NCBI RefSeq assembly: GCF_003334255.1
Contig: NZ_QOWU01000281.1
Strand: one strand, 5' to 3'
Source of the DNA: Escherichia coli
GTDB taxonomy: Bacteria; Pseudomonadota; Gammaproteobacteria; Enterobacterales; Enterobacteriaceae
DNA: 212 nucleotides
In this document: piece by piece, positions 1 to 212 of the stretch
Layout: each line of letters begins with the position of its first letter
Position numbering within the stretch: position 1 is the first letter of the stretch
Notes under the pieces: generated by a model
What the model saw: the letters and a program-made list of their open reading frames with translations, nothing else
The model's database searches: none
What the model was told of the DNA's origin: nothing
Translations under genes and position numbers: made by a program

Positions 1-22
1 AAAAACGAGTATTTTTAGTCAT
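1..22 (-). CDS. IS3-family transposase OrfA (N-terminal helix-turn-helix subunit), 5' end only: start codon plus six codons, continuing beyond the window
   Basis: Minus-strand ATG at 22-20 followed by ACT AAA AAT ACT CGT TTT encodes M-T-K-N-T-R-F. This matches the recalled N-terminus of IS629/IS1203 OrfA (MTKNTRFSPEVRQ...). The start is preceded by a GAGG SD with a 7-nt spacer. Confidence 0.8.
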
Positions 23-34
23 CCTGTTTACCTC
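23..34 (-). promoter_or_regulatory. Ribosome-binding site for orfA
   Basis: The minus strand reads GAGGTAAACAGG immediately 5' of the ATG. GAGG lies at plus-strand positions 31-34, 7 nt from the start codon, and a second AGG directly abuts the ATG. Confidence 0.6.
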
Positions 35-51
35 TTTCTCAGGAAGTTTAG

Positions 52-76
52 TCTCCAGGATTCCCGGGGCGGTTCA
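52..76 (-). repeat. Left terminal inverted repeat (IRL) of the IS element; outer boundary at position 76, inner boundary approximate
   Basis: The outermost bases on the minus strand are TGAACCGCCCCGGGAATCCTGGAGA. IS3-family elements carry imperfect terminal IRs of roughly 25-40 bp beginning 5'-TG. The inner limit cannot be set without the right end (IRR), which is outside the window. Confidence 0.7.
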
Positions 77-208
77 ACCGTGTGGCTGTCACTTAGTCTG
101 GCGGCTATCGTGAACCGTTCAGCGAGTCGGACATTAAGAGCGCGGTTGTAGATTCAATTGGTCAACGCAACAGTTATGTGAAAACATGGGGTTGCGGAGG
201 TTTTTTGA
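77..208. other. DNA flanking the IS insertion; apparently non-coding, identity unknown
   Basis: Plus-strand stops at 94, 111, 135, 149, 179 and 206 interrupt two of three frames. The remaining frame (97-212) has no ATG and no SD-associated start. The minus strand also carries multiple stops. I do not recognise the locus. Confidence 0.5.
196..200 (+). promoter_or_regulatory. Putative Shine-Dalgarno sequence (GGAGG) for a downstream plus-strand gene
   Basis: A perfect GGAGG core lies 8 nt upstream of the ATG at 209-211, which is canonical spacing. Confidence 0.35.
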
Positions 209-212
209 ATGA
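209..212 (+). CDS. Possible start of an unidentified plus-strand CDS running off the 3' end of the window (only ATG plus 1 nt visible)
   Basis: ATG at 209-211 sits 8 nt after GGAGG, and an in-frame TGA at 206-208 lies immediately upstream, so an ORF would begin fresh here. The call rests only on SD and start-codon geometry; there is no coding sequence to assess. Confidence 0.3.

Follow-up and report, generated by a model that had tools for sequence, protein, structure and literature searches.

Insertion sequence ends in the window

The analysed stretch of Escherichia coli DNA, 212 nucleotides in length and hereafter called the window, is a mosaic of insertion-sequence ends. It begins with two IS3-family sequences, namely the left end of an element and the remnant of a further transposase gene, and finishes with the left end of IS30 (Table 1). 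In the IS629/IS1203-type element, the terminal TGAACCGCCCC begins at position 76 and the first ORF starts at 22..20 (MTKNTRF...), directed away from IS30. A total of 2,837 E. coli records match window positions 140-212 at 99% identity or more, those listed being 100% identical and annotated as IS30, and positions 75-212 are present with 100% identity on several E. coli plasmids. The whole junction of positions 1-212 had no record in E. coli or plasmid collections, and a query with positions 79-212 found no match in the phage collection.

IS30 is among the oldest known bacterial insertion sequences. The window stops 4 nt into its transposase ORF, and the full length of the element was checked on an identical reference copy in the same orientation (L003, in which position 2001 corresponds to window position 140). 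In L003 the element spans positions 2008-3228 (1,221 bp) and contains one long transposase ORF, the CDS at 2070-3221, which begins 62 nt from the tip and is annotated as an IS30 family transposase of 383 amino acids (DDE; ORF-A). The right end is an imperfect inverted complement of the left terminal inverted repeat (IRL), so that the element is bounded by imperfect terminal inverted repeats of 26 bp beginning with TGTAGATTCAA (window 147-172, L003 2008-2033). Together with the near-identity to known copies, these features identify the element as IS30. The left end is also identical in sequence to the canonical IS30 left end, with IRL, the weak ORF-A promoter and the ORF-A start, for which citing papers refer to Dalrymple, Caspers and Arber 1984 and to Dalrymple and Arber 1985.

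The preliminary description of this DNA had placed the start of a downstream ORF at position 209, and this is indeed the annotated start of the transposase (L003 CDS 2070-3221); in all 29 aligned relatives the transposase ATG lies exactly at element position 63. The other motifs it had listed were found as described when checked in the sequence. These are the complementary hexamers CGCAAC (166-171) and GTTGCG (191-196), the GGAGG at 196-200 that has G196 in common with the 3' arm of this stem, the TTTTTT at 201-206, and a mini-ORF (186-212) that translates to MGLRRFFE* and whose TGA overlaps ATG209.

IS30 was found at one and the same position (junction ...AAGAGCGCGGT/TGTAGATTC) in two diverged versions of an IS3-family remnant, namely window 77-146 and L003 1938-2007. 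The two flanks are about 75-88% identical by eye and the IS30 portion is 100% identical. This sequence comparison suggests either that IS30 inserted at a preferred target more than once or that the IS30 copy was replaced.

Table 1. Features of the 212-nt window. H1 to H4 denote the four helices of the predicted fold-back, given as RNA.
Feature	Positions	Strand	Remarks
Left end of an IS3-family element, IS629/IS1203 type	1-76	-	Sequence comparison
Remnant of another IS3-family transposase gene	77-146		Sequence comparison
IS30 left end	147-212	+	100% identity to annotated IS30
IS30 left terminal inverted repeat (IRL), 26 bp, TGTAGATTCAATTGGTCAACGCAACA	147-172	+	Provides the 5' arms of H1-H3; ends compared in L003
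H1 5' arm, AUUCAA	152-157	+	Predicted to pair with 205-210; MFE folds, RNAalifold
H2 5' arm, GGUC	160-163	+	Predicted to pair with 199-202
H3 5' arm, CGCAAC	166-171	+	IRL positions 20-25; holds the GCAAC box, invariant in the IS30-like set
H4 5' arm, UUAUGU	174-179	+	TTATGT/TATGTG, the best -10-like hexamers for the weak native promoter, overlap this arm
Hairpin loop, GAAA	180-183	+	Predicted by folding
H4 3' arm, ACAUGG	184-189	+	Probable native transcript start at ~180-195
Mini-ORF, MGLRRFFE*	186-212	+	Most likely fortuitous; no Shine-Dalgarno sequence; ATG in 9/41 relatives
H3 3' arm, GUUGCG	191-196	+	G196 is the first Shine-Dalgarno base
Shine-Dalgarno sequence (SD) of the transposase gene, GGAGG	196-200	+	8 nt 5' of the annotated ATG; G196 paired in H3, G199-G200 in H2
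H2 3' arm, GGUU	199-202	+	Rich in G-U pairs; folds, RNAalifold
T6 run, spacer between SD and ATG, no terminator tail	201-206	+	Not conserved; terminator scan negative
H1 3' arm, UUGAAU	205-210	+	Overlaps A209 and U210 of the start codon
IS30 transposase ATG, ORF running off the window	209-212	+	RefSeq annotation

Predicted fold of the IS30 left end and its recurrence in relatives

In MFE folds, the stem formed by 166-171 and 191-196 is the core of a longer structure. The models describe the IS30 left end as a nested fold-back of four short helices (H1-H4), by which IRL is predicted to pair with both SD and AUG. The preliminary description had not mentioned the outer pair of helices (160-163/199-202 and 152-157/205-210). 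An inner pairing of ATG (176-178) with CAT (185-187) had been proposed there, and both triplets are present, but the predicted pairing is longer and consists of six pairs between UUAUGU and ACAUGG, including two G-U pairs. Since the 5' arm noted initially is the inner end of IRL, the structure reads as the end of the element folding onto its own translation start. The 3' arms cover both the SD and the start codon, with G196 contained in H3, G199 and G200 in H2, and A209 and U210 in H1; in IS30 itself, only one to three of the five SD bases are paired.

The predicted stability of this structure exceeds what base composition would provide. The segment 166-196 has a free energy of -11.9 kcal/mol compared to -4.2 +/- 1.7 kcal/mol in dinucleotide shuffles (z = -4.5), and none of 1,000 shuffles was as stable. 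For the segment 160-212, for which the preliminary description had called for an energy estimate, the value is -13.8 kcal/mol (z = -2.1); the longer segments 147-216 (-19.5 kcal/mol, z = -3.3) and 152-210 (z = -3.9) also fold beyond chance. The initial impression of a hairpin that touches the SD just upstream of a real start codon and that has a regulatory look is supported. A search of both window strands with the Rfam 15 covariance models gave no match at E <= 1.

To obtain relatives, one genome per bacterial species was scanned, which yielded 80 loci encoding transposase relatives with 47-97% identity. Anchoring on the conserved IRL tip left 65 distinct left ends, each of which was folded from position 1 to ATG+5. 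The mean z-score against shuffles was -1.92, with negative values for 92% of the 65 elements, and in 62 of them at least four of the 17 bases from SD to AUG were paired with element positions below 34. The arm sequences differ by lineage and include CGCAAC/GTTGCG (IS30), ATGCAA/TTGCAT, CGCAACAC/GTGTTGCG, CAACATC/GATGTTG, ACCCTAT/ATAGGGT and CACCCTC/GAGGGTG. Of the conservation that the preliminary description had proposed to look for, the part concerning the stem is therefore borne out, as the hairpin recurs with differing arms in the 65 left ends; the part concerning the mini-ORF is not, as its ATG is present in 9 of the 41 left ends that have the same tip-to-ATG spacing as IS30.

The register of the pairing shifts between lineages, so that tests that do not depend on an alignment carry most weight. 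When the 5' and 3' halves of an element were compared with chimeras made with distant elements, its own halves folded better in 60 of 65 cases, by a mean of 5.6 kcal/mol, and for IS30 none of 40 chimeras matched its own halves. A double difference that cancels composition had a mean of -11.1 kcal/mol; 96% of 1,788 distant pairs gave a negative value, as did each of the 65 elements. Together with the shuffles, these chimera and double-difference tests rule out a chance origin of the hairpin. The alignments add compensatory changes at individual pairs. In an alignment of 29 sequences, the IS30 structure pairs 73% of cells, compared to 33-42% with slid partners, and covariation is observed at the pairs 20-50 (CG 8, UG 8, UA 4, AU 2) and 32-39 (GC 12, AU 11). 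For 14 IS30-like sequences, RNAalifold recovered H1, H2, H4 and, of H3, the two basal pairs; four pairs in this consensus are compensatory. All six pairs of H1 were predicted, five of which are kept in 14/14 sequences and one in 13/14, and the pairing of H2 is kept through changes from GU to GC and from UG to UA. The pairing is hence conserved with compensatory change, the pattern expected under selection. RNAalifold found no consensus structure for the mixed 29-sequence alignment; in a second subgroup it recovered just the inner helix, which is invariant and shows no covariation.

In 41 of the 65 left ends, exactly 62 nt separate the IRL tip from the ATG, and most of the remaining ones have 59-63 nt. 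The spacing is held in relatives with as little as about 50% protein identity. Such rigidity may stem from the promoter, the hairpin and the site at which the end is bound acting as joint constraints.

Transcript starts and the cost of opening the translation start

With reference to Dalrymple et al. 1984, PMC9783932 describes the native IS30 promoter as having its -35 within IRL and its -10 'in an internal symmetrical sequence'; the promoter is weak (PMC13393415). A consensus promoter scan of the region returned no site, and a low-threshold listing of hexamer pairs gave weak candidates only, with at most 7 of 12 matches. Each of the candidates with a -35 in IRL leads to a start at 180-195; by geometry alone, a -35 inside IRL would place the start at about 179 or later. 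From a start at ~180-195 we infer that the native mRNA should be without all of the 5' arms. The search for a -10 position common to the family was uninformative, the positions being diffuse, and a literature search for a mapped insI1 start site gave nothing useful.

A second promoter is documented at the junction of IS30 circles and tandem dimers, from which high transposase levels have been reported (PMC9333248). We rebuilt this junction from the real ends (L003 3189-3228 plus 2008-2047, with a 2-bp spacer) and obtained a near-consensus promoter, with TTGACA in IRR and TAGATT in IRL separated by 17 nt. Its predicted start, at about 160-161 (element position 14-15), lies inside the fold-back. 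The predicted junction transcripts would lose H1 and most of H2 and keep the inner 166-196 hairpin. This indicates that the block is partial at best, because the junction RNA keeps the inner hairpin and high transposase levels are nonetheless reported.

We estimated the effect of these different 5' ends on the accessibility of the translation start. The mean unpaired probabilities of SD and AUG differed modestly between 5' ends and depended on the 3' end, and for this reason we turned to the opening cost, the energy for unpairing the 17 bases between SD and AUG inclusive. Across the 65 elements, the opening cost was 10.7 kcal/mol with the real IRL region, 7.1 kcal/mol when positions 1-39 were shuffled, and 5.4 kcal/mol when the 5' end was set at about position 40. 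Shuffling lowered the cost in 56 of 65 elements (p = 2e-10, a value that overstates independence because of the shared phylogeny of the 65 sequences). For IS30 itself, with 3' ends at window-equivalent positions 246-330, the cost was about 10.3 kcal/mol for an external transcript, 9.5 kcal/mol for 5' ends at 160-162, as in the predicted junction transcripts, 8.9 kcal/mol at 166, 5.4 kcal/mol at 172 and 5.2-6.4 kcal/mol at 186-188. Dropping the arm 166-171 thus cuts the predicted cost from 8.9 to 5.4 kcal/mol, which means that the CGCAAC arm gives most of the predicted occlusion. It should be noted that the contrast for IS30 is sensitive to context, amounting to only 6.4 versus 5.7 kcal/mol with the 3' end at window-equivalent position 400. 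As a thermodynamic prediction, read-through RNA would consequently be translated less well, at an extra opening cost of about 4-5 kcal/mol that becomes weaker in a long 3' context.

Possible roles of the fold-back

We consider it probable, if by no means certain, that the fold-back of IRL onto the transposase translation start disfavours translation of transcripts that enter the element from outside, in the manner of IS10 and IS50. In RNA transcribed across the IS30 end from an external promoter, positions 152-171 and 174-179 would fold onto 184-210, and the resulting helices would sequester three SD bases (the first in H3, two others in H2) together with A209 and U210 of the start codon (H1). 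The energy required for ribosome binding would be raised, and transposase would as a result be poorly translated from read-through RNA. A native promoter that is weak and has its -35 in IRL would start transcription 3' of all 5' arms; the native mRNA would carry the 3' arms only and would leave SD and AUG comparatively open. IRL would then have two jobs, serving as the transposase recognition site in DNA and as an anti-SD and anti-AUG sequence in RNA.

This interpretation has to be weighed against several others, one of which places the complementarity at the level of DNA. Here GTTGC would be an inverted second copy of the GCAAC box, or the sequences would be sub-terminal modulators, with a role in transposase binding or in autorepression of the promoter. 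Szabo reportedly described in 2008 that sub-terminal sequences internal to IRL modulate IS30 transposition. The N-terminal domain of the IS30 transposase gives a footprint on the inner inverted repeats that overlaps the promoter, according to PMC3299598 (citing Stalder 1990), and the antisense strand also folds beyond chance (z = -1.42), as any palindrome would. However, 60 of 65 elements fold more stably on the sense than on the antisense strand. G-U pairs are threefold more numerous on the sense strand (155 versus 50), and its z-score after control for composition is significantly lower (-1.92 versus -1.42, p = 3e-4, with the same reservation about relatedness). Between 7 and 31 nt separate the GCAAC box from its partner arm, a variation that fits an RNA loop and not a fixed protein site. 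These four results point to a structure of the sense transcript rather than a protein-binding palindrome. Moreover, several relatives have 5' arms that lie wholly outside the conserved GCAAC box and are unrelated in sequence (ACCCTAT/ATAGGGT, CACCCTC/GAGGGTG, CATACC/GGTATG), and the 3' arm follows the SD and AUG instead of keeping a fixed distance from IRL. We regard an explanation at the DNA level as improbable. Far less probable still are two readings at the RNA level, both of which the preliminary description had raised. The stem and the T6 run could form a weak intrinsic terminator or attenuator that stops transcription into IS30. The T6 run does follow the stem after 4 nt, and if H2 forms the stem extends to 202 and is followed directly by UUUU; a precedent is the left-end terminator of IS200, which acts against impinging transcription (PMC4513863). 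Yet the base of this extended stem is rich in G-U pairs, and the terminator scan of the region returned no site. An intrinsic terminator has a G+C-rich stem followed directly by a conserved U tract, and here a 4-nt gap comes after the strong stem; the preliminary description, pointing to this gap and to the shortness of the stem, had held that this is not a canonical terminator. Among the 41 relatives with the same spacing, T6 is found in one and T5 in three, whereas the hairpin is conserved. The other reading assumes that the mini-ORF is translated, possibly leaderless from A186, and that the UGA/AUG overlap couples it to translation of the transposase. The ORF and its ATGA overlap exist, and a native start at about 186 would place the AUG at the very 5' end of the mRNA. 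The overlap arises, however, because the second codon of the transposase is AGA, AAA or AAG. A leader or coupled ORF would be expected to have initiation signals of its own that are conserved in relatives, but there is no SD 5' of ATG186, this ATG occurs in the 9 of 41 relatives mentioned above, all of them close to IS30, and an upstream ORF ending at the overlap in 6 of 41. Neither the T6 run nor the mini-ORF start being conserved among the 41 equally spaced relatives, the terminator and the mini-ORF were both rejected.

Two further possibilities concern the transcripts on which the hairpin would act, and we hold each of them to be unlikely, although less so than the alternatives above. The hairpin might chiefly affect RNA that the element itself produces from the junction promoter, in which the segment 166-196 would lie at the extreme 5' end (start at ~160-161) and could stabilise the mRNA or set a fixed, moderate level of translation. 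The junction promoter is documented (PMC9333248) and its geometry was computed from the real ends; an RNA beginning at 160-162 contains the inner hairpin and still costs 9.5 kcal/mol to open, and IS200 provides a precedent in the form of a constitutive SD-sequestering stem in its native 5'UTR (PMC4513863). This would leave unexplained the conserved and covarying outer helices H1 and H2, which are absent from junction transcripts, as well as the pairing of the AUG itself. The nested hairpin might also sort transcripts by their start and so constitute a translational gate with three states, built into a 60-nt segment that is also, as DNA, the transposase-binding site and tuned to the copy-out-paste-in cycle. 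External read-through RNA would form all four helices, with SD and AUG masked; junction RNA, starting at ~160-161, would lose the outer helices, which would free the AUG, and would keep the inner 166-196 hairpin right at its 5' end as a possible stabiliser; RNA from the weak native promoter would form none of the helices. If such a gate exists, its design might be general to the IS30 family, in which the 62-nt spacing from tip to ATG is widely conserved.

The preferred reading, in which the fold-back acts against read-through transcripts, resembles known systems. In IS10 and IS50 the proximal arm lies 5' of the native start site, so that only transcripts from outside form the occluding hairpin; the structure of IS50/Tn5 is analogous to the IS10 fold-back. 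Fold-back inhibition in IS10/Tn10, for which PMC13181058 cites Davis, Simons and Kleckner (1985), is said to protect against fortuitous activation by external promoters. As in these elements, the structure in IS30 is made by a left-end inverted repeat, its distal arm lies over the transposase translation start, and the native promoter is weak. With a native start at ~180-195, the proximal arm would lie upstream of that start in IS30 too. In contrast to IS10 and IS50, IS30 has its terminal inverted repeat, transposase-binding box included, as the proximal arms, and the models yield four short nested helices instead of one long stem, with an SD that is partly paired and an effect that is predicted. 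Sequestration of translation signals has also been reported for IS10 and IS3 (PMC13181058). IS200 shares with IS30 a left-end inverted repeat and an RNA hairpin at the transposase SD; in the tnpA 5'UTR this stem-loop sequesters the SD and lowers 30S binding (PMC4513863). Both of its arms are contained in the native 5'UTR, which results in constitutive repression, and a separate terminator deals with impinging transcription (PMC4513863), whereas the 5' arms of IS30 should be absent from the native mRNA.

The dyad seems to correspond to the 'internal symmetrical sequence' in which PMC9783932 places the -10, and the dyad itself was evidently noted in 1984. What is added here are the extended fold-back onto the AUG and the family-wide co-evolution of the arms, that is, a device of a known kind in a known element. 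No statement of a fold-back mechanism for IS30 was found in the searchable literature, from which older subscription papers are mostly absent. If the interpretation is right, the fold-back would be how IS30 and its relatives, including the medically important ISApl1 and ISAba125, silence their transposase inside transcribed genes, and the inner end of IRL would be constrained twice over, as a protein-binding sequence in DNA and as a pairing arm in RNA. It would add one family to a textbook class of mobile-element control and opens no new question.

Two observations were made just downstream of the translation start. At L003 2089-2111 (window-equivalent 228-250, past the end of the window), at about codons 7-14 of the transposase ORF, there is a terminator-like hairpin, CAGAGG-AAAAAG-CCTCTG, followed by T5. 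The terminator scan did not flag it; it dominates the local folds and, when truncated, competes with the SD region for pairing. In the IS30 copy of E. coli CDC#03-98 (L001 2650-2680), a deletion of about 46 bp extends from the T-run after the SD to the T-run after this downstream hairpin. The deletion takes out the normal ATG, and the RefSeq CDS at that locus is shorter and begins at a different start.
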